A program made the translations under genes and the position numbers. Source: a virus (taxonomy: Duplodnaviria > Caudoviricetes). From it: a DNA stretch of 56,366 bases. Shown in pieces: positions 19,278-56,366 of this stretch. The stretch lies in IMG/VR virus record IMGVR_UViG_3300028920_000081, positions 1-56,366 of that record. One strand, 5' to 3'. Position 1 is the stretch's first letter; each line of letters starts with the position of its first letter. The notes under the pieces are model-generated. The model saw only the letters and a list, made by a program, of their open reading frames with translations. It was not told where the DNA came from and searched no databases.

Positions 19278-19278
19278 T

Positions 19279-39142: not shown

Positions 39143-39147
39143 TCTAT

Positions 39148-39594: not shown

Positions 39595-39764
39595 TAAGTA
39601 ATCCTCCCTAAAACTTCTATTTGAACTTTATTGTCTCTTTCTAGGTCCTTTAATTCAGAACGAACATAATACCAGTTAGAACCTATTCCCTTAGCAATTT
39701 CATTAATTGTCTTTAAACTATCTTGTTTTTTTAGAAAATCTAATATCTTATCTTTTATATCCAT
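39576..39764 (-). CDS. Winged-HTH transcription regulator
   Basis: KILDFLK...TINEIAKGIGSNWYYVRSELKDLERDNKV. Confidence 0.8.
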   Translation of the reverse strand: MDIKDKILDFLKKQDSLKTINEIAKGIGSNWYYVRSELKDLERDNKVQIEVLGRITYCKCLK

Positions 39765-39797
39765 TATATAATCCTATGTATAATGGACTTTATAAAT
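39758..39797 (-). promoter_or_regulatory. 40-bp TATA + palindromic operator + ATG, copy 2
   Basis: Exact reverse complement of 13827-13866. Confidence 0.9.
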
Positions 39798-39806
39798 GTT
39801 TTGGAA

Positions 39807-40061
39807 TTACTCTTTTAACATTTTTTTAAGCCTATTATAGTAATTATGATATAAATTAAACTCTTCTATATTTTCTGTTACACTTCTTAACCAATTTCTT
39901 GTAGCTAAATCTGTTTCTTCTTGTTGTCTTTCTGTTTCATTAAGAGAATAATTTTTAGCATATCTATCTAAAGTATTAGCAATATTATCCCCATCATTAA
40001 ATATTCTGTCTATTATCATTTTCATTTCTCCTCTTTTTTCTTTATTTCCTCTCTCATACAT
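39807..40061 (-). CDS. Hypothetical protein (start probably about 40025)
   Basis: Overlapping operon ORF. Confidence 0.5.
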   Translation of the reverse strand: MYERGNKEKRGEMKMIIDRIFNDGDNIANTLDRYAKNYSLNETERQQEETDLATRNWLRSVTENIEEFNLYHNYYNRLKKMLKE

Positions 40062-40384
40062 TTACACATTTCATCAATTCCATTAACTTCTTCTCCACAA
40101 ATGAGACATTTCCACCCTTTCTCCTCAAAACCAAACTTCTCTTTGTTTAGTTTGTCTACTATACTATTTACTAACATTTCAGAAGCATCATCTTTAATAA
40201 ATAAATCTGAAACTCTCTGTTTCAATTCCTTAACAAATTCCTCAACTGCTTTTTTGACATCTTCAGAATAGAATACCTTTTGTTTAAGATTATGTCCTCT
40301 ATTATGAGTATGTTCTTTATCTTTTAATGTAGTTGTATGATTTTGTTGTTTTTCTAATGGTGTTTCTTTTCTTGTGTTATTCAT
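40022..40384 (-). CDS. Hypothetical protein with C-terminal Zn-finger; paralogue of 54631..54897
   Basis: TLKD...VKKAVEE...KFGFEE; CLICG...CKC; start behind GGAGG. Confidence 0.6.
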   Translation of the reverse strand: MNNTRKETPLEKQQNHTTTLKDKEHTHNRGHNLKQKVFYSEDVKKAVEEFVKELKQRVSDLFIKDDASEMLVNSIVDKLNKEKFGFEEKGWKCLICGEEVNGIDEMCKCMREEIKKKEEK

Positions 40385-40575
40385 TTTAAATCCTCCTCTG
40401 TGATGTTGAATCTCTTCATCCATTTCTTAGTTGTTTTGTCCACTTCACTAAAACCCAAATATCCTTCTTCTATAATATCTTCTTTTATCCACTTGATTGC
40501 TTCTGCTCTTAATTCTTTTCTTTTAACTTCTCCATGCCAAGAAGTTAAATCATTTAATGTTTTAAGTTCTGTCAT
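40381..40575 (-). CDS. Small hypothetical protein, KTLxDL...EAIK...ITEEDL family
   Basis: Paralogue of 41120..41350. Confidence 0.7.
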   Translation of the reverse strand: MTELKTLNDLTSWHGEVKRKELRAEAIKWIKEDIIEEGYLGFSEVDKTTKKWMKRFNITEEDLK

Positions 40576-40580
40576 TTTAT

Positions 40581-40841
40581 TTAGTCATACAAATAGTTAT
40601 ACAAAGTATTTAAATGTTTTGCTATTTTTTTTCCTAATGGAGTTATATTAATAGTTAATTCTCTACCTTTTTTTGTTGTAGTTACAAATCCTTTTTCAAT
40701 AAATAGTTTTAAAACTTTTCTTCCAGAAGCTTCTGTGAAAAATTCCCTACTTAATCTCGTGAAGTTTTTAACTACGCCTTTTTTATCATTTAGGTATAAT
40801 TTTATTAACAATTCTGTTCTTTTTTTATTTAGTATTTCCAT
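40581..40841 (-). CDS. Winged-HTH (MarR/ArnR-like) protein
   Basis: LFIEKGFVTTTKKGRE...ITPLGKKIA. Confidence 0.7.
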   Translation of the reverse strand: MEILNKKRTELLIKLYLNDKKGVVKNFTRLSREFFTEASGRKVLKLFIEKGFVTTTKKGRELTINITPLGKKIAKHLNTLYNYLYD

Positions 40842-41145
40842 TTCTTAAATCTATTAGTTTATTTATGAGTATAAATTCTTCCCTAATTGGATCTCTTTCA
40901 AAAACTTCTCTAAAAACATCTAAAGCAAATCTAACATCATCTTCAATTTTAGTATCTATCTGTTCTTTATCTTTTATCTTTTCCAATTCTTGTAATGAAA
41001 TAATTTTCTTCTTCTTCTTATCTAAATAAACAATATCCCCTTTTTTTATTTTTCCTTTGAAAGAAAATTCATTAAACCACTCCTGTCCATCATATATGTT
41101 TATTTTTCCTTTTGCTTCTTTAAGGGCCACAACTTTTATTTCCAT
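40825..41145 (-). CDS. Hypothetical protein (possible OB-like N-terminus)
   Basis: IYDGQEWFN...IKKGDIVYL; GGAGG SD. Confidence 0.55.
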   Translation of the reverse strand: MEIKVVALKEAKGKINIYDGQEWFNEFSFKGKIKKGDIVYLDKKKKKIISLQELEKIKDKEQIDTKIEDDVRFALDVFREVFERDPIREEFILINKLIDLRNGNTK

Positions 41146-41350
41146 TTAAATCCTCCTCAGTTATATCAAATTTAACTAAAATATAATCAATAGCAGTCAT
41201 CTTCTTAACTCTTTCATTTCTTAAATCTTTGATTGCTTCTTTTTTTAAATCTTTATGAAAATACTCTTGTATAATTTGTATTAACTCTTTCATATCTTTA
41301 TCCTTTTCTGTTATATTAAACCTTAAATCCTTTAATGTTTTTATTTCCAT
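41120..41350 (-). CDS. Small hypothetical protein, KTLxDL...EAIK...ITEEDL family
   Basis: Paralogue of 40381..40575. Confidence 0.7.
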   Translation of the reverse strand: MEIKTLKDLRFNITEKDKDMKELIQIIQEYFHKDLKKEAIKDLRNERVKKMTAIDYILVKFDITEEDLNGNKSCGP

Positions 41351-41633
41351 TTTTTACCCCCATTCTTTTATGTTGTCTTTTAAAATCTTGAGTATCTCTA
41401 ATTTCCTTTAAAATTACATTAGAAGTTATCTTTTTAGCAGCAAAAAGTTTAACATCAAAGTGCCTTAAAATTAACTTTTGTAATTCCCTTAAAAAAATTT
41501 TATTCTCCCCTTGAACACCACAGGTTAATGTAAAATGAGTATTTGAATTTCTAAATTTTAATGTTCCAGATTTATTGAAGTTATGCTTACTTCTTAAGGA
41601 TATTATCATTATATATCTCTCCTGCATTTCCAA
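41316..41633 (-). CDS. Hypothetical protein
   Basis: Overlapping operon ORF. Confidence 0.5.
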   Translation of the reverse strand: MEMQERYIMIISLRSKHNFNKSGTLKFRNSNTHFTLTCGVQGENKIFLRELQKLILRHFDVKLFAAKKITSNVILKEIRDTQDFKRQHKRMGVKNGNKNIKGFKV

Positions 41634-41890
41634 AATATAGTTTTTTTGTTTGTAATAGGGCAGAGATCTTTTTTGTAAAAGATAACAACCCCCATTTTTC
41701 TTAACTCATAGATTCTTGGAACAACTGAATTTATTGGAAGTCCTATTTTTTCTGCTATCATAGTATTATTAGCAGTTTTTAATTCTCTAAGAACTCTAAA
41801 TACTTCTTTTTGTCTTTCCCCTAATTGTTCTAAAACATCTGCATAAGCTAATAAACTTGTATCCCTCATCTTATGTTTTTTATGTTCCAT
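41609..41890 (-). CDS. Winged-HTH protein
   Basis: LGERQKEVFRVL...IAEKIGLPINSVVPRIYELRKMGVV. Confidence 0.8.
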   Translation of the reverse strand: MEHKKHKMRDTSLLAYADVLEQLGERQKEVFRVLRELKTANNTMIAEKIGLPINSVVPRIYELRKMGVVIFYKKDLCPITNKKTIFWKCRRDI

Positions 41891-42795
41891 TATAATTTTA
41901 CCTGTTCCTCAACTAATTTAACTTGTTTTTCTTGATAATCTTCATTTAAATCATTATTAACCCACAATTCTTTTGGAGTCCAATTTTCCATTATGTATGG
42001 TAATTCTTCCCACTCTTTGCTTCTTTCAGTAATTCCCTTAAGTAAATTCCCAAAAGTTTCCTCACTTCCTGTATATCTGTTCTTATAAATTGCTTTTAAA
42101 TCATAACTCCAACCCAAGTCATCAAGTAGTTTCTTCCCTCTTTTATGAATTTCATCAATAATTTCCATTCTCGTATAAAACTCCCCTTTTTCATCGGGGT
42201 GTCCCATTCTCATTATTTCTAAAATTCTTTGTGGAGTTTCCTTGCTTAAATCATATCCAAATCTTTTCATAAGAGATTTTCTCATATCTTCTTCTGAATA
42301 AAATAACTCACTATCTTTTAATTTATCTACCTTAGGAGCATTTTCAAATTCCCATTTTTTTAGAGTATTTAATTTTTGCAGTTTTTTTGTTAGGTTTTGT
42401 ATTTCTTCCTTAAGTTCTTGCCTTGCTCTTTCAATACTTCTCTTATCTATGTCTATACTCCACTCCTCGTGCCTTATTATTCTATCTTTATCGGATTCAA
42501 ATTCCTTATTATTATAAGGGATTTCTACAAGAAATATGTTTTCTTCTTTATATCCTTTCTCTTTTAATTCTTGTTTCATTTCCTTTATTAGAAATTTTAG
42601 CTTTGCTTCCTTATCATTTTCATCACCCTCAAAGTTATTTCCTGCTCCCCCAGATGAGTGATAGATACACATATCCCCCATAATTCTGCAATTCCAATCT
42701 TCTTTTAAATCACTATCTATCCCTCTAATTACTTGAATTACTGCTCTCTTATCGTGTTTTATTGTTTCTGTTTTTAAGCTGTTTTCAATAGGCAT
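41890..42795 (-). CDS. Hypothetical protein, 301 aa, central coiled coil
   Basis: Long ORF in operon; no motif recognised. Confidence 0.65.
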   Translation of the reverse strand: MPIENSLKTETIKHDKRAVIQVIRGIDSDLKEDWNCRIMGDMCIYHSSGGAGNNFEGDENDKEAKLKFLIKEMKQELKEKGYKEENIFLVEIPYNNKEFESDKDRIIRHEEWSIDIDKRSIERARQELKEEIQNLTKKLQKLNTLKKWEFENAPKVDKLKDSELFYSEEDMRKSLMKRFGYDLSKETPQRILEIMRMGHPDEKGEFYTRMEIIDEIHKRGKKLLDDLGWSYDLKAIYKNRYTGSEETFGNLLKGITERSKEWEELPYIMENWTPKELWVNNDLNEDYQEKQVKLVEEQVKL

Positions 42796-43106
42796 TTTTC
42801 TTCCTCACTTATAAAATTTTTAATTAAAACTTTCTTTTCTTCCAAGATATTTGTTATTTCTTTTATCTTGTATTCTGTGAAATTTCTTCTTTGATAAAGA
42901 ATTTTAATCTTATCTACTAATTCCTTTATCTCTAATCCCTTAATTTCTTGCTTAAATCTCCATTTCATTAAGCTAAATCTTCCTTTTGGTTTCTTCCTAT
43001 ATCTTTGTCTATACTTATCTCTACATTTATTTGAACAAACTTTTCCTAATTTGGTGTGATATTTATTACACTCAACGCATCTTTTTGGTGGTTTTAATCT
43101 TCCCAT
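42774..43106 (-). CDS. Zn-finger protein
   Basis: CVEC...CSNKCRDKYR. Confidence 0.6.
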   Translation of the reverse strand: MGRLKPPKRCVECNKYHTKLGKVCSNKCRDKYRQRYRKKPKGRFSLMKWRFKQEIKGLEIKELVDKIKILYQRRNFTEYKIKEITNILEEKKVLIKNFISEEEKCLLKTA

Positions 43107-43327
43107 AGTTCATCTACCTCTTTTACTATTATGTTTTCTATCTTCACATTATATTCATCTGCAAGTTCTTTGATTATCTCTTTTTCTGAAGAATATCTTA
43201 TGTTTGTTTGTATAGTTAGGGGGAAAGTAACTTCATCATCAAAGTCATCACTATTTTCAACTGCATAAACCCCCTCTTTCTTTCTTATAATCAATTTCTT
43301 TTCAGATTTGAATAAAGTTACTTGCAT
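43094..43327 (-). CDS. Acidic hypothetical protein
   Basis: Operon ORF. Confidence 0.55.
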   Translation of the reverse strand: MQVTLFKSEKKLIIRKKEGVYAVENSDDFDDEVTFPLTIQTNIRYSSEKEIIKELADEYNVKIENIIVKEVDELWED

Positions 43328-43782
43328 TATTTCATCTCCACGCAGAATAACCGATTTTGATCAATCATGCAATAACCCTCATCTGCATAAACAAAAGCTA
43401 CTCTATGTGCTATTCCACCTTTTTCGTAAATTCTTTTAGTTGTAGCATTAACTCCTCTTTGATTTGCTAAATCTTGGTATAACATAGCCCAATTTCTACA
43501 ATCCCCACCCTCATCTATTAACTCTTTTAGTGTCATATTTCTACTATCTTCTTGGGATTTAAATTTGTAAATTGTTTTTACATAATCATTTAAACAACTT
43601 GCAGTTTCAAAGAAAGTTAGATTATAGCAACCACCAAATTCTGTTTCCTTAAAAACTTCATTAGGATATTTGATTACTTCTTCATCACAAACTTTGAAAT
43701 AATTTGCTATTAACCCTATCTGCATTACTACCACAACTGCTAAAATTACTAAAATTATTTTATCTATTTTCATTTTCCTCAT
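43327..43782 (-). CDS. Membrane-anchored transglutaminase-like Cys protease
   Basis: N-terminal TM; GGDCRNWA, AHRVAFV, CMIDQ (Cys-His-Asp). Confidence 0.7.
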   Translation of the reverse strand: MRKMKIDKIILVILAVVVVMQIGLIANYFKVCDEEVIKYPNEVFKETEFGGCYNLTFFETASCLNDYVKTIYKFKSQEDSRNMTLKELIDEGGDCRNWAMLYQDLANQRGVNATTKRIYEKGGIAHRVAFVYADEGYCMIDQNRLFCVEMK

Positions 43783-44938
43783 CTTTTTGTGTCATGTCAT
43801 TTTGGCACTTAGTTTTAATTCTATAAAATTGCCTACGAGAATACCCTGTTTCATCAGTAAATTTCTGTTGTGCTTCTTTTATAGTATTGCTCTCTTGAAG
43901 AAACTTCTTAAGCAAATATAATCTTTCATCTCTTTTAAACAAGTTCTTTGATAGTTCTTTCCAATTTTCTTTATCTGCTATATACAAATCATATAGTTTA
44001 ATCAGAGTCCTAAAGTTTAAGTCCTTTACACTTTCATCTATGCTTTCTTGTAAAAAATTGAAGATTTCTTGTCTTTTCTCTAAAGTTAAGTTCTTATAAG
44101 GTATCTTAACAAATTCTGCTAATATCTGAAGTATCTCTGAATAGCTAAAGTTAATCTCATAAACTAAACTTCTACTTAATAATGCCTTAACTAACTCATC
44201 ATTTTCATTTGGTTTCTTGTTTAGTAGGAAAAACATTTTTCCAGTAAATTCAAATTGATGTGGGGCTTTCAATCTCTTATCTGTTGTAAGGTATGAAATA
44301 ATCCTTTTGTTGTTTTTACCAATACCCCATAATCCCCCTTTTAGAAGATTAATGAACTTACTTCCTAAACTAAAAATTCCCTCAACATCATCTAAAACAA
44401 TAGTTTTATCTTTATGTTCATATAAGAAATTGATAAATTCTACACAAGTAGTATAATTACTTAGATAAACATAATCTACTTTTTCTTCCTTTAATGTGCT
44501 TAATACCTGAGTTGTTTTCCCATATCCACCACTACTCACAACAAATAAACTATTAAGATAACCTTTACTTTTAGCTACTGCTTTTACATAATTCTTTAGA
44601 TTTCCAAAGTATTTTTCTAAATCTGCATTTTTGTTTTTAGAAATTTCCTTGATTTCATTATCTAATTTCTGTTGTGCTTCTGCTTGTTCTAAAACAAATT
44701 GTTCTTTTTCTGCTTTGCTTACTTCTTCTTTCTCTTGCTTAATTCCTTTCTCTTTTTTCTTTGGTTCTATTGTATTTTCAATCCCTTTAGAAGTGCTTAA
44801 TGTTAAAACCACTTCTTTTATAGCATTAAAGTTTTCTTCATCTGTTAGTGATTTATCTATTAAACTTTCTGTATCTATCAAATCTGTTTCAACATTATAC
44901 TCTTTACATAGCTTCTCAATTTTTTCTTTAATCTTCAT
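43760..44938 (-). CDS. AAA+ ATPase with C-terminal HTH
   Basis: Walker A SSGGYGKT, Walker B IVLDDVE, ALLSRS Arg finger, ETGYSRRQFYRIK HTH. Confidence 0.8.
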   Translation of the reverse strand: MKIKEKIEKLCKEYNVETDLIDTESLIDKSLTDEENFNAIKEVVLTLSTSKGIENTIEPKKKEKGIKQEKEEVSKAEKEQFVLEQAEAQQKLDNEIKEISKNKNADLEKYFGNLKNYVKAVAKSKGYLNSLFVVSSGGYGKTTQVLSTLKEEKVDYVYLSNYTTCVEFINFLYEHKDKTIVLDDVEGIFSLGSKFINLLKGGLWGIGKNNKRIISYLTTDKRLKAPHQFEFTGKMFFLLNKKPNENDELVKALLSRSLVYEINFSYSEILQILAEFVKIPYKNLTLEKRQEIFNFLQESIDESVKDLNFRTLIKLYDLYIADKENWKELSKNLFKRDERLYLLKKFLQESNTIKEAQQKFTDETGYSRRQFYRIKTKCQNDMTQKDEENENR

Positions 44939-45113
44939 CTTCTTCGTACTCCTCTTTAGTTAATGCTCTAACACAAAAATCAAAATCTTCCGAGTAAGAA
45001 TTTAAAAATGTATTTATCATCTCTTTTTCCACTCTATTGTGAGTTTCAAATTCCTCTCCAGTTTCTTTGTCTATTAAAACAACAACCCAATATCTTAAGT
45101 GTTCTTTACTCAT
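44928..45113 (-). CDS. Small acidic hypothetical protein
   Basis: Operon ORF with SD. Confidence 0.55.
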   Translation of the reverse strand: MSKEHLRYWVVVLIDKETGEEFETHNRVEKEMINTFLNSYSEDFDFCVRALTKEEYEEDED

Positions 45114-45200
45114 TTTCTATTAACTCCCTTGATTTTCTTTCAAAATCTCTTTCTCTTGCTTCTTCCAATAAATAATCCTCTTGTTCTGCATTTAGTTCTA

Positions 45201-45971
45201 TCATTTTTTACCCCCATTAAGACACATAGAGAAAGGATTTGACTCCTCTCTCTTATGTGTTTGGCTACTTACAACTCCATTTCTAATTTGGCTTACAAAA
45301 CTTTTCAGTAGTTGTTTCTTTTCCTCAATTACTGAGTCTTGTGTTACAAGATTTTTGTAACTATTAAGAAATTCTTTGGCTTGTTCTACATATTCTAATT
45401 TGTTTAGTTCTTTACCCTCGTGTTCTATTATCTCTTTTAATCTGCTTACTTCCTCGTTATTACTATAAGAGTTAAATGGTATTTCAACATAAATCAAGTC
45501 CTCTTTATTGTTTAACATAATAACTAAATGCTCTTTTCCTCTAATCACTAATTTACATATAGCATAGTAATCTGTTAAACTTTCTTTGAAAGAATAGAAA
45601 GTTTTAAAGTCAGATTTCTTATATCCTTTGGCTATGCTTGGTAACAGAATCTTTGAATTTTTAACATAAGGAAAGATATTACTAATGGTATCTTTTCCTA
45701 ATTTCTTAATTCCTAATACTTCTAATCTTCCATTTTCAAGCAATTCCTTTAGTTTATTTTCTTGTTCTTTTGAAAGTATTGTGTCCTTATCTAATCCCTT
45801 AAGAATATCATTTCCTAAAAGTTCTTTATCGCAATTCTTACAATATTTCTTATATCCTACCCTTGCTTTACAACACTCGCTAAATTGATGAAGTGATGAA
45901 TAACCACTTTGATTATTGTAAAGATTTAATGTCATTACAGGTATTTTTATTAGTCCTATTTGTATCTGCAT
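45201..45971 (-). CDS. ku: Ku-like DNA end-binding protein
   Basis: IGLIKIPV...LHQF...RVGYKKYCKNCDKEL...DILKG and AICKLVIRGKEHLVIM match the prokaryotic Ku core. Confidence 0.8.
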   Translation of the reverse strand: MQIQIGLIKIPVMTLNLYNNQSGYSSLHQFSECCKARVGYKKYCKNCDKELLGNDILKGLDKDTILSKEQENKLKELLENGRLEVLGIKKLGKDTISNIFPYVKNSKILLPSIAKGYKKSDFKTFYSFKESLTDYYAICKLVIRGKEHLVIMLNNKEDLIYVEIPFNSYSNNEEVSRLKEIIEHEGKELNKLEYVEQAKEFLNSYKNLVTQDSVIEEKKQLLKSFVSQIRNGVVSSQTHKREESNPFSMCLNGGKK

Positions 45972-45972
45972 T

Positions 45973-47438
45973 TTATAACTCCTCTATAATTTTTTGTTTA
46001 AATTCTTCTATCCTATGTCCTCTTTCGCATAGTTCTATTAACTTATCCTTACAACTTACTTCGTCAGGATAGGTATCCATTAACCACTCTGAATATAAGT
46101 CCATAATTCTATCAGTAAAACTTAAACTCATTTTTGTAACTCCTTTAAACACTCGTAGCAAATCCTTAATTCTACCATAGTTTCTGAATCGTCATAAGGG
46201 TATGTTTTATTTACTTCTTTGTTACAGAATTGACATTTTTCCATTTTTCTCTATTTACCTCAAGTTGTTTAATTTTTTCCTTAAGTGCCTTAAATTGTTC
46301 TTCAGTTAAGATAGTTATATGACTAAGGTTATGAAATCCCTCATCAAGATAGTCATTTAAATCATCTTCGTCCTTAAATTCTTCCTCAAATATATCAACC
46401 CTTTCGTCTAAGGCATTTGTTTCAATAAAATATCTGTTTATCATCTTGAATTTTGTATGATTAACCTATCTAAATTAACCTCAAGGTAATCATTTAGTTT
46501 ATTTGGATTTTTTTCTAATGCTTTGAAAGTTTCAGTATCTAAAAACTTCTTAAGCAAGTTTATTTTTTCTTCTTTTGTTAAGTTCATTTTCTACTCCCTA
46601 ATTTTTCAAGCAGTTTTTTATTTTCTACTTCTTCAAGAGTCAGTATAACTCCCCCTAATTGTTCTAAACAATTTAGATTAAATATCGTAGCAGGTAAGTT
46701 GTATTTTTCCAAAACTTCTTTAATTTTATCCTTTAAAGCATACGAAATATAACCATTTCTATCCTTGTGCAGTTTTTCCCATAGTGGATTATTTACCTTA
46801 AATGGTTCTATACTCCACTCGGTTAATAAATAATAAGTTTTCATAGTTCCCTCACTCCTAAAAACTCAAAAATAGATTTTTTAGGTTTAATTTTATTAAA
46901 GTCCTTTCCAAATTTTCTTATTTTCTCTTGCTCTATTAAGTTTAAGACATCTTCATAAGTGTTTATAATATCCTCACATCTCTTTTTTAATATCGGTTCT
47001 TCTTCTGCCTTGTCCTTAAAATATTCTATTTTTCTTTGAATTTTTATTATTAATTCTTTCATTTTTGGTCTTGCTCCTTATCCCACTCTTTTAAAAGAAT
47101 ATCTTGTATTTTATTGAAAACCTCAACATTTGTTATTTCTTTTTTAAAGTGATAATTCTTACTTTTTAATTCTATAATATATTTTTCTTTCATTATAATA
47201 CCTCAAATGTAGTAAATCCATTTTTACTCACTGCTTTAAAGTGTGTGTCATCTATTTTAAAAAACTCATTTTCTAATCCTAAAATAAACTTAGGTGTGCA
47301 GAATCCATATCTTTTATCCTTGTTTATATAAAACTTCTGAACTTCCCACTCTCTAACTTTTAAAGGATTTTTCCATTTATATTTTACTTTCTTATGGTGT
47401 GTTTCTTTCTTAAATCTATTAAAACTTATTTCTTTCAT
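45973..47438 (-). other. Cluster of small hypothetical early genes (45973..46161, 46211..46444, 46584..46844, 46841..47062, 47193..47438 and shorter ORFs)
   Basis: Dense co-oriented 40-90 aa ORFs with GAGG/GGAG SD-like motifs. Confidence 0.6.
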
Positions 47439-47764
47439 TTTATTTTTATTCCTCTGTGTCTAAATCTTCCCAAAAATTACCCATTTTAAAAACCCTCAAA
47501 TACTAATTTAATTAACTTTACAAATTCTTTAATTTCTTCTTTTTTAAACTCCTCGTGCCTATCTAAAATGTCTGTAACTGCTAAATAAACTTCTCTTAAT
47601 CTTCCTTTAATCATTTTAAACACTCCTTAATTCTTAATTCCATAGCTTGTTTTAAGCTCAAAACTACAATTTTTAATCTTAAAAAATCACTTTCCTTTAT
47701 ATGATTTCCAAAATATAAACTCTTTATAAGTTCAAAATCCTTATTTATTTGTTTTTCTTCCATT

Positions 47765-48130
47765 TTAATAACCCCTTATAATAAACCCTTCGTCTAAGTC
47801 ATCACCCAATTTAATTAAAGTTGTTTTGTTTCTTATTTCTTCCTCTATTATCTTTGAAATATCCCCTTCTCCATTTTCTTTTAAATCTTGTATTTTTTCG
47901 TTTATCTCGTCTGTTGTATAATAATTATTTAAGTATTCTTCAATGTTTCCATATTCGCAAAACTCACAACATAAAGCTATAATGTCCAGTTCTAATTCCT
48001 CTCCTGTATCTTCCTCGTAATCTTCCAAATAATCAAATAATACTCTTTTACCCTCATAACTAAAATTGTTATCTCTATTCATCTGTTTAAATCTATCGCA
48101 AAATTGACTAAAATTTACTTCTTCTTTCAT
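47765..48130 (-). CDS. Very acidic conserved phage early protein (possible DNA mimic)
   Basis: FSYEGKRVLFDYLEDYEEDTGEELELDIIALCCEFCEY. Confidence 0.6.
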   Translation of the reverse strand: MKEEVNFSQFCDRFKQMNRDNNFSYEGKRVLFDYLEDYEEDTGEELELDIIALCCEFCEYGNIEEYLNNYYTTDEINEKIQDLKENGEGDISKIIEEEIRNKTTLIKLGDDLDEGFIIRGY

Positions 48131-48254
48131 TTTGAAACCTCAATATTTATTTTATAATCCCTATCATCTGTTAATTCTTCCATAATTAACTTTATGACTT
48201 CTTCTTTTGAGAGTTGTTTTAAGTCGTAGCACTTATTTATATATACTAAATCTA

Positions 48255-48548
48255 TCATTTTAACCACCTCTTAAATTTATTATAACTTCCTTGTTTGTTT
48301 TCTGTAAATCCAACAATATACCCTAACATTTCCCACTTATTAATAAAAAACTTCTGTTCAGAAATACAACTTTTTAAATCAACTAAGCTAATACTAATAG
48401 CTCCCCTTATATCTTGCTTTCCAAACTCTACTCTTTTAATTAATTTTGGATTAAATAACTCGGCAAATTCTTTTAATTTACTTAGGTAATAGTTCTTATA
48501 ATCCCCAGTAATTCTTATATTTAAAATTGCAGTTTCCATTTTAAGCAA
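48255..48548 (-). CDS. Hypothetical protein
   Basis: Co-oriented early ORF. Confidence 0.55.
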   Translation of the reverse strand: MLKMETAILNIRITGDYKNYYLSKLKEFAELFNPKLIKRVEFGKQDIRGAISISLVDLKSCISEQKFFINKWEMLGYIVGFTENKQGSYNKFKRWLK

Positions 48549-48700
48549 AAACCTTTATGCTAAAATTGGGCATAATCCCAACTTCTGCACTATTAAAGTT
48601 CTTATTGTATTTAATTCTTGAAAGTTCTATAAACTTTCTTAAGTCAGCTAAGCCAACCCTTTTGTTTTGTCTTTTGTAAGCCATTTTATTTCTTATTTTT

Positions 48701-49570
48701 TTATAAGGTTTCTTTCCTTGTTTTATTTAGTTTAATAGAGGTAACCCCTATTTTATTATGATTTTTTGCTTTCTTACTTCCCTTATATTGATTATTAAAA
48801 AATCTATCCTTAAATTGTCTTATATGCTTAATTTTAACACTATTAGAACTTACTTTAAGATTATTATAATTATTATAACTCTTATCAATATTCGTATTAT
48901 GAATAGAGGTTTTATTTTTACCATTTCTTTTAGAAAAATAAAGTGCCTTATCTGTCCTTAATATACTTAAATTTAAGTCATTTGAGTATTTAGCTATACC
49001 TAAACTTAAGGTGTTACTTGTATTTTTATATACTGCTTTCCTTATTCTCTCACTAATTTTATAAGCTGTTTTAAGTTCTGTGTTTGGTAGTATAATAATA
49101 AATTCTTCCCCACCATACCTATAAACCTTATCTATGCCTTGTCTTAAACTGCCTTGTATTTGCTCAGAAACTTGTTTTAAGAGCATATCGCCTTGTAAGT
49201 GTCCATAAGTATCATTAACTTTCTTAAAGTCGTCTATATCTGCTAATATAAAGCATAGTGAGTAATTAAGAGTAATTGCTTTATTTACTTCTTGTATTAC
49301 TTCATAATTAAATGTATTTCTGTTCTTTATGCCTGTTAATTTATCATAATACATAATAGTTTTTAATATCTCTTGTTCTTCTATTGATAGTTTATTAAGA
49401 ATTTGATTTATTAAACTTCTATTTTCTATTTTATTTAACCTTTGTTTCTTATGGAGATTTACCTTTTTAAGTCCTAATTCTTGTAAATTTAAGCTATTTG
49501 CTTTATTAGTTTCCACTGGAAATATAGGTGTTTTGTCCATAGGGCATAGTTTTTGTTGTTCTGCTCTCAT
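48701..49570 (-). CDS. GGDEF-domain diguanylate cyclase
   Basis: DKLTGIKNR, ADIDDFKKVNDTYGHLQGD, RYGGEEF, LSLGIA, DKALYFSKRNGKN. Confidence 0.93.
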   Translation of the reverse strand: MRAEQQKLCPMDKTPIFPVETNKANSLNLQELGLKKVNLHKKQRLNKIENRSLINQILNKLSIEEQEILKTIMYYDKLTGIKNRNTFNYEVIQEVNKAITLNYSLCFILADIDDFKKVNDTYGHLQGDMLLKQVSEQIQGSLRQGIDKVYRYGGEEFIIILPNTELKTAYKISERIRKAVYKNTSNTLSLGIAKYSNDLNLSILRTDKALYFSKRNGKNKTSIHNTNIDKSYNNYNNLKVSSNSVKIKHIRQFKDRFFNNQYKGSKKAKNHNKIGVTSIKLNKTRKETL

Positions 49571-49827
49571 TTTAAGCTAAACCTCACTATAAAGGGTATT
49601 AACCAATTAGTGCAAGGAGTAAGCAGACAGGCAATAACTCCTATACTTCCAAATCCTACCCTCACTTTATTTAATTTAGGTGTATATGTTTCAAAGCTAT
49701 ACCTTGTTTTTACTGGTTTGATAAATCTTATAATATTCATTACTTTCTTTTGTATAATGTTCTGTCTATGATAGTAAATCATTTTAAACTCCATACTAAA
49801 GCCAAGCCAAGCAATAAGAAGGGGCAT
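49567..49827 (-). CDS. Small membrane protein coupled to the GGDEF gene (true start probably 49794 or 49782)
   Basis: C-terminal hydrophobic segment; ATGA overlap with the cyclase start. Confidence 0.6.
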   Translation of the reverse strand: MPLLIAWLGFSMEFKMIYYHRQNIIQKKVMNIIRFIKPVKTRYSFETYTPKLNKVRVGFGSIGVIACLLTPCTNWLIPFIVRFSLK

Positions 49828-49885
49828 ACTACTTTAAGTGTATCAAGTAATACCCCCCTGCTTATGTGAGATTTAATTTTAAGTA

Positions 49886-50173
49886 TTAACTGCATTTTAA
49901 CCCCTTTGTGTCTTTATTTTCAATTATGACCCAATCGTGTTGTTTTGCTTGTTCTCTTTGTCTTTCTATCGTTTTTATAAAATCCTCTCTTGTTGCCTTT
50001 CTTACTATTGGTTTTTTATATGCTTGTAACTCTTTTATTTCTTGTCTTAAACTTTCTATTCTTCTTTTTATGCTTTCTTTAGTTCTTTTGTATTCTTCTT
50101 TATTATATTGGTTACTATTTTTTATACTCTCTTTATAATCCTTATAGTTCCATAGTGTAAATGTGTATTTCAT
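49886..50173 (-). CDS. Coiled-coil hypothetical protein
   Basis: Second gene of the leftward operon. Confidence 0.6.
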   Translation of the reverse strand: MKYTFTLWNYKDYKESIKNSNQYNKEEYKRTKESIKRRIESLRQEIKELQAYKKPIVRKATREDFIKTIERQREQAKQHDWVIIENKDTKGLKCS

Positions 50174-50355
50174 TTCTTTATCCTATGACTACAAATAAAA
50201 AGTTCTTTCTTTGTGTCGTGTTCTATCTGTCTTGTTATACACTTACAAATACTACAATACAAATCTTTATAAATAACCTTATCCTTATCAGAATTGTTAT
50301 AAAGATTTGTATCCTCTTGTCTTTCTATCTGTGTTCTTTGTTTGTTTATTTCCAT
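50170..50355 (-). CDS. Small Zn-binding hypothetical protein
   Basis: CSICK...FICSH; leaderless, behind a TATA box. Confidence 0.6.
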   Translation of the reverse strand: MEINKQRTQIERQEDTNLYNNSDKDKVIYKDLYCSICKCITRQIEHDTKKELFICSHRIKK

Positions 50356-50375
50356 AATATAATAATATGAATATT

Positions 50376-50434
50376 CTTTATAAATCTTTTGTATAATCTA
50401 TTATACATACTCTATTACAATAATATTTATAAAG
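50376..50434. promoter_or_regulatory. Divergent promoters with a central palindrome
   Basis: Minus-strand AAAAGATTTATAAAG (50377-50390), palindrome TGTATAAT-CT-ATTATACA (50390-50407), plus-strand ATTTATAAAG (50425-50434); marks the strand switch. Confidence 0.7.
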
Positions 50435-50587
50435 GGAGTTATTCGGTTATAATTTCACGAAGAATAATCTGAAAATTGCTAATAGTCAACTTTATAATTT
50501 ATTTAGACCAAAATCAAAAGTGAAGATTGTAAGACACATTGTATAATGAAACAAAAAGTATTTAAAGTTTAGGCGTCTTGTTTTTCT

Positions 50588-50728
50588 ATGAAAGAAATAA
50601 AACAATGTCCTGTTTGTCAATCAAGAAAGATTTCTCAAAAAGGATCTGAGATGAGATGTAATAATTGTGGTTACACTCACTCCGATAAAGAGGAGGCGTA
50701 TGTCAAAACTTTAAATGAAACTAAATAA
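50588..50728 (+). CDS. 46-aa Zn-ribbon protein (not in ORF track)
   Basis: CPVC...CNNCGY; AAAAAGTATTTAAAG TATA about 25 nt upstream. Confidence 0.7.
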   Translation: MKEIKQCPVCQSRKISQKGSEMRCNNCGYTHSDKEEAYVKTLNETK

Positions 50729-51173
50729 AACAAAATTTCATTTGGACATTTTGAAGCATCAAAAACTCTTAGGCGTAACAGCTTATAATTTGGATTCCAT
50801 AGAAAGAAAAGATGAAGATTTCAATAAACTCTTGTCCAAAATTGTTGGACAAGGAGAGGATTTAGCCATTGCAAGGTCTGGTTTTAAATGTGAAAATCCT
50901 AATTGTTTTGAAACAAAAAATCTTCAAATCCATCATTTAATTATGAGAAAAACAAAAGAAATAATACCTCCAAATATTTATTTATCTCAAAGAAATTATT
51001 TTGCAAACATGGTAATTTTATGTGCTACATGCCATAAAAAGATTCACAAGATTACTGAAGGGAAGAACAATAAAGATTTAGTTCTTTCAGATGAGAGGAA
51101 AGATAAAATAATTAAAAAATATTACAAAAAAGTCGATATACCCGGCGAAACGACGGCTAACGCCGTTTTATAA
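50715..51173 (+). CDS. HNH endonuclease
   Basis: CENPNC...LQIHHLI...NMVILCATCHKKIH. Confidence 0.85.
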   Translation: MKLNKTKFHLDILKHQKLLGVTAYNLDSIERKDEDFNKLLSKIVGQGEDLAIARSGFKCENPNCFETKNLQIHHLIMRKTKEIIPPNIYLSQRNYFANMVILCATCHKKIHKITEGKNNKDLVLSDERKDKIIKKYYKKVDIPGETTANAVL

Positions 51174-51388
51174 TGTTTGAAGATGCTAAAACAAGAGTTG
51201 TTAAAGCTAAAGATGAGATTCAAGCGTATAAATTTCACAATAAAGGACATGAAGTTAAAATACCTAAATCAGTAAAGCAGGGTAAAGGAAAATGGATCAA
51301 AGATACAAAATCATCACAATCACATGGAGTTGAAAAAAAAGTAAAAAATGCAACAAAATATTATACAAAATTTGCAAGAAGAACATAA
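51173..51388 (+). CDS. Small basic hypothetical protein
   Basis: Lys-rich ORF coupled to HNH. Confidence 0.55.
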   Translation: MFEDAKTRVVKAKDEIQAYKFHNKGHEVKIPKSVKQGKGKWIKDTKSSQSHGVEKKVKNATKYYTKFARRT

Positions 51389-51533
51389 TCCCCTACATTG
51401 CAGGGCAGAGATGTCCGAGTTTCAAGGTTCTATGGCTTAGTTAAAAGCTAAGTTTTAGCCTGAGTGAACAAAGAGATGTTGGTTGGGGAAAGAAACATTA
51501 CTGAAGTTGTTTGTTTGACCACATCTCAATCAT

Positions 51534-51644
51534 GCTCCAGTAGCATAAAGGCATTGCATCTGCCTTGTAAGGAAGGTTATTCATCTCAGTTTAATACTTC
51601 TTTAAGAAAGCAGAAGGTTGCAGGTTCGACTCCTGTCTGGAGCT
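51534..51644 (+). tRNA. tRNA-Thr(UGU) with 39-nt intron (about 51570-51608)
   Basis: Acceptor GCTCCAG/CTGGAGC, anticodon stem TCTGC/GCAGA, CT-TGT-A, T arm GCAGG-TTCGACT-CCTGT, U73, no CCA; relaxed BHB (CTTG/TAAG helix, AAA bulge). Confidence 0.9.
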
Positions 51645-51646
51645 TT

Positions 51647-51702
51647 TGGCCATAGCATAATACTAGTTATGGTGTTGGTGCGTTCGATTCGCACATGGTT
51701 AA
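51647..51702 (+). ncRNA. D-armless tRNA-like mini-element
   Basis: TGGCCAT/ATGGTTA acceptor-like stem, one hairpin CATAAT/GTTATG, perfect T arm GTGCG-TTCGATT-CGCAC. Confidence 0.55.
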
Positions 51703-51769
51703 AGGACAACTGGAAAGACAGCTTTATTCCGGAGTTCTCCCTTCCGGTAAAATAAATAAGGGGGACCAA

Positions 51770-51914
51770 TGCTCGGTAGTCTAATGGTAGGATATGAGAC
51801 TCATGCAGCCACGCTTGATAACTAAGTTTGAAACCATTGAAAAATTCTCCTTTTGAAGTGTGTTTCTGTGGCTGGAGAAATCTCAAGATGGAGGTTCAAA
51901 TCCTCCCTGAGCAA
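51770..51914 (+). tRNA. tRNA with CAU anticodon (Met-like) and 74-nt intron (about 51805/6-51878/9)
   Basis: Acceptor TGCTCGG/CTGAGCA, anticodon stem TGAGA/TCTCA, CT-CAT, T arm GGAGG-TTCAAAT-CCTCC; intron stem CAGCCACG/TGTGGCTG with BHB-like bulges. Confidence 0.85.
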
Positions 51915-52006
51915 TTAAATAAGACAAAAATTAAATAAGGGAATAAGGCATTTAACAATAACCCAAACCTTTAAATAGTTTATATAATTGATTATACAAA
52001 GATAAA

Positions 52007-52156
52007 ATGACAAATATAGAATTAAAAGATAACTTCGCATTGATTGCATGTGATCCTCCATTAAATAAAGAATCTAAACTATTCTGGTTAGCTGTTGCTT
52101 CTGCATTATTTTTGTTATCCGGTATTGGAGTATTCTTATACATATTCCTAAGATGA
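52007..52156 (+). CDS. 49-aa C-terminally anchored membrane protein (not in ORF track)
   Basis: TTTAAATA TATA at 51970-51977; TM helix LFWLAVASALFLLSGIGVFLYIFL; ATGA overlap with the ligase. Confidence 0.65.
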   Translation: MTNIELKDNFALIACDPPLNKESKLFWLAVASALFLLSGIGVFLYIFLR

Positions 52157-52752
52157 AAATAAAAGATATGCCTAAACTTGAATGTCCTTTTGTTAGAAAG
52201 GAAGTTAATGGAAAATATATTGTAATAAATGAAGTTAATCCTGGATATGAATGGGTATTTGAAGATGAAAGTGTTATGGCAATAGAAAAACTTCATGGAA
52301 CTAATGTTAGTATTTTAATTCAAGAGGGAACTGTTACTGCTGTTTTTAATAGAACAGAGAGAATACCATTTATTAATAAAGGTAAGAAGTGGATAATTGA
52401 AGGTTTACTTAATTCTAAAGAAAGAGGATATTTAGAGTTTTTAAGTGATGGCCAACATTTTGGTGAATTAATTGGACCTAAAGTAAATGGAAATCCGTAT
52501 AAGTTAGATGAACATTTATGGATTCCTTTTGAAACATTTTGCCAAAAACATTTAAAATATAAATCATGGGGGAAATATCCTAAAGATTTTCAAACAATTA
52601 GTAATTGGTTTAAAGAATTACTTCCTCTATATACTTCTATGAAAGGAGATAGAAATGGATTTGTAGAAGGAATAGTATTTACTCACCCAGATGGAAGAAT
52701 GGCTAAATTAAGATGTGATATGTTTGATTGGTTTGAAGGGAGGAGGCATTAA
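52153..52752 (+). CDS. ATP-dependent RNA ligase, RLIG1/DUF5565-like
   Basis: Motif I EKLHGTN, Ia FNR, III GELIGPKVNGNPY, IV EGIVF, V MAKLR; nucleotidyltransferase domain only. Confidence 0.85.
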   Translation: MKIKDMPKLECPFVRKEVNGKYIVINEVNPGYEWVFEDESVMAIEKLHGTNVSILIQEGTVTAVFNRTERIPFINKGKKWIIEGLLNSKERGYLEFLSDGQHFGELIGPKVNGNPYKLDEHLWIPFETFCQKHLKYKSWGKYPKDFQTISNWFKELLPLYTSMKGDRNGFVEGIVFTHPDGRMAKLRCDMFDWFEGRRH

Positions 52753-53165
52753 TGAAAAACAAAAAAGCAGAAGAATACAAATTAAAATTTTTAGAAAGCG
52801 AATTAGAAAGAGTAAAACAGAGGTATGAAACTTATTTAAAAGTATTAATAAAATATAAACTTCCAGAAACAGCTTATGCTGCTATAATGTATGATGAATT
52901 ATATCACGATATGTTATTAAAATATATGGAGGATGGTGGAAAGTTTACTGATTTTATATTTGGAAATAATAAAACTCCAATAGATAAAATAAACTCAGAA
53001 ATAAAAAATTATGAAACTCTAATAAAATTAATAATAGGAAAGATAACAATGTTTGATGATAAAACTAAAAGAGAAATAGTAGATGATGCTATAACTTATA
53101 AAAAATTGTGGTTAGAAATTCCAAATCCATTAGGTAAAAAGAAATGCAAACAAAGGAAAAAATGA
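52752..53165 (+). CDS. Hypothetical protein
   Basis: Coupled ORF. Confidence 0.6.
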   Translation: MKNKKAEEYKLKFLESELERVKQRYETYLKVLIKYKLPETAYAAIMYDELYHDMLLKYMEDGGKFTDFIFGNNKTPIDKINSEIKNYETLIKLIIGKITMFDDKTKREIVDDAITYKKLWLEIPNPLGKKKCKQRKK

Positions 53166-53680
53166 TAGATAAGAAAAAACAAGGAAAAAAGAATAGAGCA
53201 TCAGGAGCTGCTTGGGAAAGGAAAGTAAGAGCAGATTTACAAAGCAAGGGATGGATTGTTTGTAAATGGATGAATAATGTTGAGTTTGAAAATTTTGCAG
53301 AGGTTAATGATGAAGGATTTAAATTTGGAGTTAGAATTCCAAGAACAGGAAAATGCGTTCCAGCTAAAAGAAAATATAATCCATTTAATAGAGCATTAAG
53401 TGTAGGAGTTGGATTTCCTGATTTTATTGCTTACAAATACGCTTATAATCAATCTTGTGGAGGATTTGGAGATGTAATAAATAAATCTCCAGAACTGAGT
53501 GGAAAAATTGAATATTGTATTATTTTTGTAGAATGCAAAACTAATGGTTATTTAGATAAAGAAGAAAAAGAGAAAGCTAGATGGTATTTAGATAACAACT
53601 ATTGCAGTAAGTTCCTTATTGCATCAAAAGTAAAAGAAGGAAGAAAAGTTATAGTTAAGTATAAGGAGTTACAAAAATGA
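53144..53680 (+). CDS. Archaeal-type Holliday junction resolvase (Hjc-like)
   Basis: GAAWERKVRADLQSKGW, GFPDFIAY, IFVECKT. Confidence 0.8.
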   Translation: MQTKEKMIDKKKQGKKNRASGAAWERKVRADLQSKGWIVCKWMNNVEFENFAEVNDEGFKFGVRIPRTGKCVPAKRKYNPFNRALSVGVGFPDFIAYKYAYNQSCGGFGDVINKSPELSGKIEYCIIFVECKTNGYLDKEEKEKARWYLDNNYCSKFLIASKVKEGRKVIVKYKELQK

Positions 53681-55172
53681 TAACAAATAATAGAGATATA
53701 CTTTATAGATTAGAAGAAATTTATCAAGTAAGAGGAATGGCTGGTTTTGAACATTATTCTAGATATGAATGCTTTAGAGAAGAAACAACTATCTTAGAAG
53801 CTTTAATGCCAATATTAAGAGAAAGAAATTCACAGGCAAGTACAAGAGTATGGAGTTTCACAGATGATTTAGTAAAGGAGGTATTGGAAAGAATATGAAT
53901 CTACAAGAAGATTGGATTGAAGGAAGACTTTGTGAAAAAGGTTTTTTAAAAGAAACTTTTACTGGAGGAGATTTGAAAAGAGAATTTACATCTAAAGGAC
54001 TTAAGGAAGTAAAAAGACTTCTTGAAACAGATGATGGAGCAAGAGCATTTATGCTTAAATACTTAATTTCTCTGCCAGAAGATCAAAGAAAAGAAACAAT
54101 AAGAAAAATTAAATCACGATTAGGAGGTATTTAAATGAAAGATATAATTATTTTATTATGTTGTTTAGATATTGCCTTGTTTTTTTTAATATTGGGAATA
54201 TTAAGTTTAACTTCAGAGATTAAATTAATTGGATGGACATTAAAGAAAAAAGAGGAGAAACAAAAAATGAAAGAGGTTGATAAAATAATTGAAATAGTTA
54301 AAGAGGTATTTAATGAATTTGAAGAAGGATATTCAAGTAATCAATGTTGGTGTGGTTGTCATGAAGGTGATATTAATGAATGTTATAAAGGAACTAAAGA
54401 GAATTTTATTAAAGAATTAAGGAAAAAACTGGAGAGGAAATAATGGGAACTTATGGAGTATCTGCACAAGAGTTGGTAGGAGAATTAACAGAGTGTTTAG
54501 ATAATATTGAAGGAGATTTTACAACTCAAGAATTAAGTGAAGCATTAGATTTTTTGAAGGGTTATTGTCCAACAATAGATTCTACTAAAAAACAAGAAAA
54601 GTGGTGGAGAAAAAAATTGGAGGATTTGAAATGACATTAAAAGATAACTTTTGGGAGATATTTAATGAAAATGGAGAAGACCAATCTAAAGAAGCAATTT
54701 ATAGAAGAGAGAGTTTAATAAGATTAAGAAATAAAATAAAGAAAGCAGTTGAGGAATTGATTAATTTTCATAAAGATAGAATTGAGGAGTTATCTAAATT
54801 TGAGTGTTTTGCAGGAATAATGTTACAAAAAGAAGAGCATAAGAGTTCATTAAAGAAAATAAACAAAATATTTGGTTTTGAGGAGGAAGAAGAATGAAGC
54901 AAATTTTATATGCTTTTTGTCCATATTGTAAAAGTCCTTTGATTTTGAAAAAAGATTTTAAGGTTTCTGGAAAAACAAAGGCAAGAAGTTTAGAAAAGGC
55001 TTGGTGGAGCTGTAGAAATGATAAATGCCATCACTCATTTCAACATGGTTGGTTCCAAAGATTTAACCAATATGATAAATTTTTAATCCTTAAAGGACAA
55101 GATGTAGTAAGTAGGGTTAGTGAGATAAAGCAGATTGAAATTTATAAATCAGTTTTTGAAAAACAATGGTAG
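53677..55172 (+). other. Cluster of small hypothetical genes (53677..53898, 53895..54134, 54135..54443, 54443..54634, 54631..54897, 54894..55172 Zn-finger)
   Basis: Translationally coupled ORFs with GGAGG SDs. Confidence 0.65.
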
Positions 55173-55453
55173 AAAAAATTATAATAGATCCAGATAAAGA
55201 AGAAGATATAGCAGACGATGTAGCTGAATTAAATAAAGAGATAGAAGATTCTGGAATGTTCCTTAAAGGCCCTGGATATATTTATTCCAAAAAATTAGAT
55301 GCTTATGTTTTTAGAAAAAAGAAAGTATCTTATGCTGGAAGTTCTGGTTGTATTTTCATTCCAAAGGAATTTATAGGTAAACATTTTAGGATAGTACTTA
55401 TGAAATTAAAAGAGGAAGAAGTAAAAAGAGAGGAGGAAGGATTAGATATATGA
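55166..55453 (+). CDS. DUF2080-like (AbrB-fold) DNA-binding protein
   Basis: KKVSYAGSSGCIFIPKEFIGKHFRIV. Confidence 0.65.
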   Translation: MVEKIIIDPDKEEDIADDVAELNKEIEDSGMFLKGPGYIYSKKLDAYVFRKKKVSYAGSSGCIFIPKEFIGKHFRIVLMKLKEEEVKREEEGLDI

Positions 55454-55779
55454 GTAGAGTAGTATTTTCTGGGGTTATTGAAACAGAAGAATCAGAAGAA
55501 TTAATCTTTGCTGCATTAAAAAAGTGGATGAATGAGAATTTCCAAAAATTCAATATGCAGGTAGCAGGAAAAGAAAAAACATTAAGACATGAAGGAGATA
55601 TGAAAAAGAATGAATAGACATGGATTAAAACAAAAGTTAAAGGAAGCTACAAAGGAACTAAATGGAGGACGTAAACTTAGTTTAAAAAGAACTAATAGTC
55701 TTAAAAGAAGGATACTTATGTATAGAAACTTATTGCAATATAAACACCCTAAGAAAAAGAAAGGGTTTGGGAATAAAAA

Positions 55780-56366
55780 ATGAAAAATTTTATAGAAAAA
55801 CTAACGTGGCTGCCATTTCATTTAAATAGAATTATTTCTCATAAAAAATCAATAGTATGTGTAGATGTTGATGGGTTTAAGTTTAAAATGAAATTAATAG
55901 AAGATGATTCTCCCTATTCTTTAACAAGTACTTTAAGAAGTTGTGGAATGAGAGAACCAAGAAATGTTAGAAATTATATCAAATTTATTGATAAAAATGA
56001 TATTGTATTAGATGTAGGAGCAAATGTTGGTTTCTTTACCCTTCTTTCAAGAAATGCTAAGAAGATTATTGCTATTGAACCTATTAAAAGATGTTTAGGA
56101 ATATTAGAAGATAATTTAAAATTAAATAATATAAATAATGTAGAGATTTACAATTTAGCATTAGGAGATGGTAAAGATGTTAATTTTATGGAAGCAGAAT
56201 CATTAAATCAATCTAGAGTTGTTAAAGGTAAAGGTTATAAAGTTAAATCAAAAAAATTAAATTATTTTGTTAAAAAATTTAAAGTAAATATGATTAAAAT
56301 TGATGTTGAGGGTTATGAATATGAGGTATTTAAGAAGGGTATTCCTAAAAGGGTAGATAAGATTAT
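55780..56366 (+). CDS. FkbM-family methyltransferase, runs off the window end (not in ORF track)
   Basis: VLDVGANVGFF, IAIEP, NLALGD, IKIDVEGYEYEV. Confidence 0.9.
   Translation, partial: MKNFIEKLTWLPFHLNRIISHKKSIVCVDVDGFKFKMKLIEDDSPYSLTSTLRSCGMREPRNVRNYIKFIDKNDIVLDVGANVGFFTLLSRNAKKIIAIEPIKRCLGILEDNLKLNNINNVEIYNLALGDGKDVNFMEAESLNQSRVVKGKGYKVKSKKLNYFVKKFKVNMIKIDVEGYEYEVFKKGIPKRVDKI

Follow-up and report, generated by a model that had tools for sequence, protein, structure and literature searches.

An intact GGDEF-domain gene near putative divergent promoters of a 56-kb tailed virus with a probable archaeal host

Genes and features at the locus

The stretch of DNA analysed here (the window) is a 56,366-bp virus record of IMG/VR, IMGVR_UViG_3300028920_000081, whose minus strand carries a gene for a stand-alone GGDEF-domain protein, a putative diguanylate cyclase (Table 1). 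This gene is the fourth minus-strand open reading frame (ORF) after a 232-nt divergent gap at 50356-50587, which is the position given to it in an earlier note made from the letters of this DNA. Its ATG overlaps the stop codon of the preceding ORF by 4 nt, as ATGA, and a GAGG Shine-Dalgarno-like site lies 10 nt upstream of its start.

Table 1. Coordinates of the features at the GGDEF locus and of other features discussed in the text.
Feature	Position	Strand	Basis or remark
Putative diguanylate cyclase, stand-alone GGDEF, 289 amino acids (aa)	48701-49570	-	ORF, Pfam, PDB, AlphaFold2 (AF2), Foldseek
GGDEF domain, residues 74-220	48911-49351	-	Pfam and six-frame search
Active-site GGEEF, residues 153-157	49100-49114	-	Translation; G153, G154 and E156 invariant in 59 sequences
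I-site RQGID, non-canonical, residues 143-147	49130-49144	-	RxxD with one inserted residue
N-terminal helices, stalk preceding the domain, residues 39-74	49349-49456	-	AF2 helices 39-60 and 63-74
Upstream ORF, 86 aa (71 aa if the start is at 49782)	49567-49827	-	Hydrophobic C-terminal stretch; overlaps GGDEF start
Second ORF of the block, 95 aa	49886-50173	-	No family above threshold
First ORF of the block, 61 aa	50170-50355	-	No family
Box resembling a TFB recognition element (BRE) and TATA box, AAAGATTTATAAA	50377-50389	-	21 nt from the TATA part to the ATG of the first minus-strand ORF
TATA-like box, TATTTAAA	50559-50566	+	21 nt before the ATG (50588) of the first plus-strand ORF
HK97-type major capsid protein	11989-13095	+	PHROG major head protein, 1e-15
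tRNA gene, anticodon read UGU, anticodon-loop insert of about 41 nt	51534-51644	+	Rfam RF00005, 54.4 bits, model 1-71/71
tRNA gene, anticodon read CAU, anticodon-loop insert of about 77 nt	51770-51914	+	Rfam RF00005, 52.2 bits, model 1-71/71
Virus-encoded Alba chromatin protein	37991-38347	-	Pfam Alba, 3.5e-11; archaeal-host marker

Sequence and fold of the GGDEF protein

The ORF encodes a real GGDEF-domain protein, with intact catalytic and guanine-specifying residues. The Pfam profile PF00990 matches it at an E-value of 1e-35 and 123.3 bits (cut-off 23.8), along profile positions 2-161 of 161, and a six-frame search of the virus record recovers the same domain with 125.6 bits. The translation reads DKLTG, ILADIDDFKKVNDTYGHLQGD and RYGGEEF, and all 22 invariant columns of a 59-sequence GGDEF alignment are kept. 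The motifs that the earlier note had listed as intact (DxLT, DIDxFKxVND, GHxxGD and RYGGEEF) are all found in the translation, among them the residues that bind metal and substrate (DxLT, DxD..FK..ND and GHxxGD).

GGDEF domains of the Hypr type, which make cyclic GMP-AMP (cGAMP), have a serine in place of the xxGD aspartate, according to the available text of PMC13725321. The viral protein reads GHLQGD, with Asp128 present, and retains the guanine-specifying pair of Asn and Asp; it is not of the Hypr type, as had been claimed. An inhibitory site (I-site) of the form RxxD, five residues before GG(D/E)EF, is common in GGDEF domains and not obligatory. In the RQGID of the viral protein the D stands at the canonical -6 position and the R one residue too far, which makes RxxxD rather than RxxD and bears out the earlier description. 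This spacing is present in 8 of 151 GGDEF domains compared, with RxxD in 127.

No second domain and no sensor domain was found in the Pfam scan of the 289-aa protein, again as described. For the window, Pfam scans covered 8 ORFs and then 98 of the 105 listed ORFs, together with a 3'-open ORF at 55780-56364. Among these scanned ORFs there is no EAL, HD-GYP, PilZ or other known receptor domain, and the stated lack of an EAL or HD-GYP gene holds within this set.

Solved diguanylate cyclases are close in sequence, with 46 distinct PDB chains matching at E-values from 1e-26 to 1e-11. The AF2 model has a mean predicted local distance difference test score of 79.7, with the core above 90 and disordered ends, including a Lys/Asn-rich C-terminal tail (residues 226-289). 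Foldseek with this model gave 136 PDB matches at E <= 1e-3, where GGDEF domains reach target TM-scores (TMt) of 0.85-0.89 and root-mean-square deviations (rmsd) of 1.2-2.3 A. These include domains crystallised with cyclic di-GMP (c-di-GMP), such as 3ign (TMt 0.88) and 5euh (TMt 0.89). The top match is a leucine-zipper-GGDEF fusion (3i5c), and its layout of a helix plus the domain resembles the model. The N-terminal helices include an "L(S/T)xxE" segment, conserved among the four closest short GGDEF proteins. A homodimer prediction for residues 45-230 scored 0.01, and we counted this neither for nor against dimerisation. The protein may dimerise, be active as an enzyme and make c-di-GMP.

Evidence for an archaeal host

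Several lines, all of them indirect, indicate that the host of the virus is an archaeon, because the virus has intron-bearing tRNA genes, an Alba gene, capsid relatives in archaeal records only, BRE/TATA-like boxes and related contigs in a Woesearchaeota-like metagenome-assembled genome (MAG). The earlier note had assumed an archaeal virus.

The two tRNA genes with anticodon-loop inserts were missed by ARAGORN and found at full length by Rfam. In the fold of the CAU tRNA the cloverleaf is kept, and the 77-nt insert forms a helix that continues the anticodon stem. Bacterial group I introns are much longer than inserts of 41 and 77 nt. Short helical inserts in the anticodon loop are the archaeal kind of tRNA intron, and a virus with such tRNAs would depend on the splicing endonuclease of its host.

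In the candidate host order described below, the Alba profile matches 89 of 101 genomes; among the controls, it matches 2 of 4 archaeal ones and none of 10 bacterial ones. A homologue search with the viral Alba returned only itself. Its matches to Alba genes of this order, in at least 25 genomes, have 66-77% DNA identity and 45-51% aa identity, and Pyrococcus Alba is not much more distant.

Among 50,697 GenBank phage records, the capsid protein matches an Altiarchaeum virus and no other. Only two matches were found in 185,579 species genomes, both in archaeal MAGs.

As for promoters, sigma-70-like sites are not enriched, with 23 in the window against 19 +/- 3.8 expected. A purine-rich box followed by a TATA motif (AAAGATTTAWAWA, with at most one mismatch) has 15 occurrences, where shuffled sequences give 8.85 +/- 2.76. 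Nearly all of these boxes (14/15) lie on the local coding strand, several at 19-26 nt before start codons, and in both divergent first genes the distance from box to ATG is exactly 21 nt. No peptidoglycan hydrolase is present among the window ORFs scanned.

The candidate host lineage

One MAG, G006, contains three end-to-end viral contigs related to the virus (C25, C55 and C100, of 10.9, 6.4 and 2.5 kb). Their aa identity to it is 76% for the capsid, 53% for the portal, 47% for the terminase and 40-60% for some early genes, and C55 begins with an Alba gene. The MAG carries an archaeal 16S fragment, and archaeal rRNA operons are present in three other genomes of its GTDB order, where genome sizes range from 0.6 to 2.7 Mb. 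The named relatives of its SecY are all Candidatus Woesearchaeota, except one Pacearchaeota, at 66-70% identity. G006 is labelled Methanosarcinales, a label that looks wrong given the Woesearchaeota-like SecY and the small genomes of the order.

We read G006 as a probable Woesearchaeota-type archaeon of the DPANN group, judging by these genes. Co-binning and gene similarity tie the virus to the order of G006, which is suggestive and no direct proof. The most likely hosts are DPANN Woesearchaeota-type archaea.

Spacers were searched with window positions 36400-56366 against 251 genomes of the order, and with positions 1-20000 and 36400-56366 against G006 and G007. Seven short hits of high identity were obtained and none of the seven lies in a repeat array.

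c-di-GMP genes in the order of G006

Genes for c-di-GMP turnover and binding were counted in samples of 101 genomes per family from this order. GGDEF is present in 54 of the 101 and HD_5, which we take to be an HD-GYP-type family, in 31, followed by EAL in 4. The receptor families that the earlier note had suggested looking for, MshEN and PilZ, turned up in a single genome each (1/101).

Contamination does not explain the GGDEF count, because GGDEF genes share contigs with archaeal rRNA in G023 and G092, and in G039 one GGDEF gene is flanked by ORFs that we read as archaeal-type by their translations. Many GGDEF genes of the order are short, GGDEF-only ORFs of 195-250 aa. Searched with the viral protein itself, 142 of 401 genomes (six unpublished ones included) gave matches of 26-46% identity at E <= 1e-10. 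These results point to a DPANN lineage in which a c-di-GMP network is common rather than sporadic, and where new types of receptor should be sought. The census of GGDEF and HD-GYP-type genes is far from the "sporadic" picture drawn in the available text of PMC13725321.

We also looked for CBASS (cyclic-oligonucleotide-based antiphage signalling system) in the order, with SMODS as its marker, and found no sign of it. The SMODS matches that did appear, in 54 of 101 genomes, were rejected as CBASS candidates. They are weak (best 45.5 bits), with one ORF of 350-510 aa per genome, and the profile also matches the M. jannaschii and S. acidocaldarius controls. These ORFs are probably a housekeeping nucleotidyltransferase and not CBASS.

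Relatives and origin of the viral GGDEF gene

The exact viral GGDEF protein is present on three contigs of the protein collection. Contigs from two runs (25.5 and 16.6 kb) span positions 47500-51500 with zero differences; these runs may be the source samples. There is one close relative, P0002, a protein of 274 aa encoded on a 2-kb contig, with 60% identity and a shared N-terminal extension. The next relatives (P0003, P0004 and P0125) are short proteins with 41-46% identity and a GGEEI active site. Scans of IMG/VR and of JGI metagenomes with an alignment of short GGDEF proteins found nothing closer than about 43% identity.

In a quick tree of 151 domains, the virus and P0002 are joined with a support of 99, and the GGDEF proteins of other IMG/VR viruses do not group with them. 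This tree leaves out two loci from unpublished genomes and, by a 180-aa filter, the short end-truncated ORFs L052_8, L042_31 and L067_22. A constrained search uniting the virus and P0002 with the clade of the candidate host order gave a likelihood 19.1 log units better than that quick tree (approximately unbiased (AU) test, p = 0.64), for a group that was named only after the quick tree had been seen. Capture of the gene from the host lineage stays compatible with this outcome. Within this group of viruses the gene is accessory, as it is missing from the related viral records.

Neighbouring genes and the rest of the virus

Most ORFs that neighbour the GGDEF gene have no family in the family profile scans. 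The ORF just upstream, with the ATGA overlap, has a single hydrophobic stretch at its C-terminus (residues 62-80, Kyte-Doolittle 1.78), and its record in the Atlas begins at residue 16. Pfam, PHROG and IMG/VR gave no relative of it, and the Atlas no usable match. The earlier note had described the cyclase gene as coupled to a small membrane protein; the coupling is borne out by the overlap, and the membrane identity is plausible but unsupported, given one hydrophobic stretch and no relatives. The label "earliest operon" for this block of genes was inferred from position only.

Elsewhere in the window, an identical 33-nt stretch is found at 13827-13859 (+) and 39765-39797 (-), made of a TATA-like box and the sequence up to an ATG. 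It precedes two unrelated genes on opposite strands, which start at 13860 and 39764, and looks like a duplicated promoter with its 5' element.

In terms of its other genes, this is a tailed virus with a terminase, portal, HK97-type capsid, tape measure, tail proteins and a 2,472-aa tail protein (PHROG and Pfam). Because a viral relative whose capsid is 59% identical has a complete genome of 60,327 bp with terminal repeats, the window is probably near full length, although CheckV gives 65%. The structural module (5870-8614, 14533-18485 and 26907-34325, all plus strand) includes a 914-aa protein bearing four lectin domains of the LamG type. It also has a cluster made up of two glycosyltransferases (15597-16511 and 17652-18485), a DUF6395 protein and an ORF that resembles a methyltransferase. 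The 2,472-aa tail protein carries DUF2341 and LamG domains. This set of LamG domains and glycosyltransferases suggests glycan-directed adsorption and possibly glycosylation of the virion.

The non-structural arms contain a Ku-like end-binding protein (45201-45971, minus strand) and an HNH endonuclease (50715-51173, plus strand). An RNA ligase at 52153-52752 (+) has 81% aa identity to one in a related contig, L020.

A possible role and its alternatives

We favour, by a modest degree, the view that an intact GGDEF enzyme, encoded by an accessory gene near the divergent promoters of an archaeal tailed virus of about 56 kb, overrides a c-di-GMP circuit of the host. The gene would be transcribed soon after infection, together with three small ORFs, from the BRE/TATA-like promoter in front of the block. 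The protein would pair through its N-terminal helices and condense two GTP to c-di-GMP, with neither sensory input nor the canonical RxxD feedback site. In a host lineage where genes for GGDEF and HD-GYP-type proteins are common, the c-di-GMP level would then rise and override the host's own signalling circuit. The timing of expression, the exact host and the downstream effect are inferred. Because GGDEF is found in 54 and HD-GYP-type proteins in 31 of the 101 genomes sampled, hijacking of an existing c-di-GMP network is more likely than the introduction of a foreign messenger.

A further step would make c-di-GMP a working messenger of DPANN archaea, with new receptors, and the unregulated viral cyclase a means of forcing a state of high c-di-GMP. 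For example, the cell could stay attached to its partner, or its surface could be altered so that further virions cannot adsorb. We put this forward as tentative and rather doubtful. If this further reading holds, the virus would be the first to manipulate c-di-GMP signalling in Archaea, and would show independently that the messenger is of importance in them. That a virus keeps an intact, unregulated cyclase gene close to its promoters suggests that c-di-GMP has consequences in the archaeal host. The effects proposed in the earlier note, namely constitutive activity, a switch of host pili or attachment, jamming of immunity and activation of the viral glycosyltransferases, gained no support and are conjectural. 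The viral protein is small, soluble and sensor-free and can therefore be tested easily.

Several results weigh against the proposed role. The gene is not conserved among the related viruses. Known c-di-GMP receptor domains are nearly absent from the order of G006, and no GGDEF match was obtained in G006 itself, the bin with the related viral contigs. No CRISPR spacer or provirus links the virus to a host in the searches made, which leaves co-binning and gene similarity as the host link. In the quick tree, the virus and P0002 do not fall within the main clade formed by the candidate host order. Also, according to the available text of PMC13725321, of 7 GGDEF proteins cloned from archaeal MAGs, the most sensitive assay registered a diguanylate cyclase signal for only 3, and none of the 7 was consistent across all three assays. 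Intact motifs are therefore no guarantee of activity.

This last point bears on the possibility that the domain is intact and yet no c-di-GMP synthase in vivo, being instead a nucleotide-binding scaffold, an enzyme with another product, or inactive without a dimerising partner. The protein has no sensor and no evident dimerisation domain beyond two short helices, and the beta-strand region beyond the alpha-helix after GGEEF is about 13 residues shorter than in the Pfam profile (160 of its positions align with 147 residues). Catalysis-independent phenotypes are also described for several archaeal GGDEF proteins in the available text of PMC13725321. Set against this, all 22 invariant residues and the guanine-specifying Asn/Asp pair are present, and the fold superposes on GGDEF domains bound to c-di-GMP or GTP within the rmsd range given above. 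We judge it improbable. The gene could also be a passenger acquired recently, without a selected function for the virus, as GGDEF is absent from all 5 related viral records, the complete 60-kb relative with terminal repeats among them, and has a single close relative of 274 aa on a 2-kb contig. Such a passenger is quite unlikely, since the ORF is intact, has its GAGG site, is translationally coupled to the preceding ORF and keeps every invariant residue; P0002 shares even the N-terminal extension at 60% identity, and we argue from this that both were kept under selection.

Equally unlikely, in our view, is that virus-made c-di-GMP competes with or desensitises a host defence based on cyclic nucleotides. 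A promoter-proximal position is the usual site of takeover and anti-defence genes, and interference of GGDEF signalling with CBASS is discussed in the available text of PMC13725321. Against it, CBASS is not indicated in the order of G006 by the SMODS survey, a survey that has type III CRISPR outside its scope. Very unlikely, finally, is a bacterial host with misleading archaeal signals, where the gene would be another GGDEF moron of a phage. The best terminase matches among isolated phages are Bacteroides phages (24% identity), and the closest named homologues of the GGDEF protein are bacterial (Marinimicrobia, "uncultured bacterium" and Spirochaetes, at about 40-47% identity), both of which count against the archaeal reading too. 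GGDEF matches occur in 129 GenBank "phage" records, and small viral contigs can be wrongly binned into a MAG. The window nevertheless holds intron-bearing tRNA genes and an Alba gene, its capsid relatives are confined to archaeal virus or MAG records, sigma-70 sites are not enriched, and no lysin is found among the scanned ORFs.

Comparison with known systems

The earlier note took the messenger as not established in archaea, a statement now out of date with respect to the enzymes: archaeal GGDEF proteins from Methanocella, haloarchaea and DPANN MAGs had diguanylate cyclase activity in Salmonella and E. coli assays, according to the available text of PMC13725321 (2026). The same text describes c-di-GMP itself as so far undetected in archaea, with activity shown in bacterial hosts only. 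Several of its archaeal proteins are short and "GGDEF-only", and none has the Hypr serine, which resembles the viral protein; they are cellular genes, unlike the virus-borne gene here. The words "virus" and "viral" do not occur in the text of PMC13725321, whose supplementary lists fall outside this count and may overlap with relatives of the viral protein. In full-text literature searches, followed at the level of titles and abstracts with supplements outside their scope, no report of a GGDEF gene in an archaeal virus was found.

GGDEF genes of bacteriophages are known at the level of annotation, as in Escherichia phage vB_EcoS-683R6 ("diguanylate cyclase"), Bacillus phage G (gp350) and Pseudomonas phage Y11. 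They resemble the viral protein in being virus-borne and in sharing 30-39% identity over the domain. A Mu-like virus also has a GGDEF gene, regarded as an auxiliary or host-manipulation gene in the available text of PMC7785012. The hosts of these bacteriophages are bacteria with well-known c-di-GMP networks, whereas the host here would be archaeal.

The closest structural likeness is to bacterial cyclases with a stalk and a GGDEF domain, namely the WspR GGDEF-GCN4 zipper (3i5c), the coiled coil of Caulobacter DgcB (6ttr) and the Marinobacter protein 3ign. The viral protein shares with them the domain, the catalytic residues and the order of helix then GGDEF (E-values 1e-26 to 1e-13, TMt up to 0.89). 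It differs in having no receiver or sensor module, RxxxD instead of RxxD, a shorter region after GGEEF and a disordered Lys/Asn-rich tail, and in being encoded by what is probably an archaeal virus. Membership in the GGDEF family is ordinary; the archaeal-virus context is what is new and informative.

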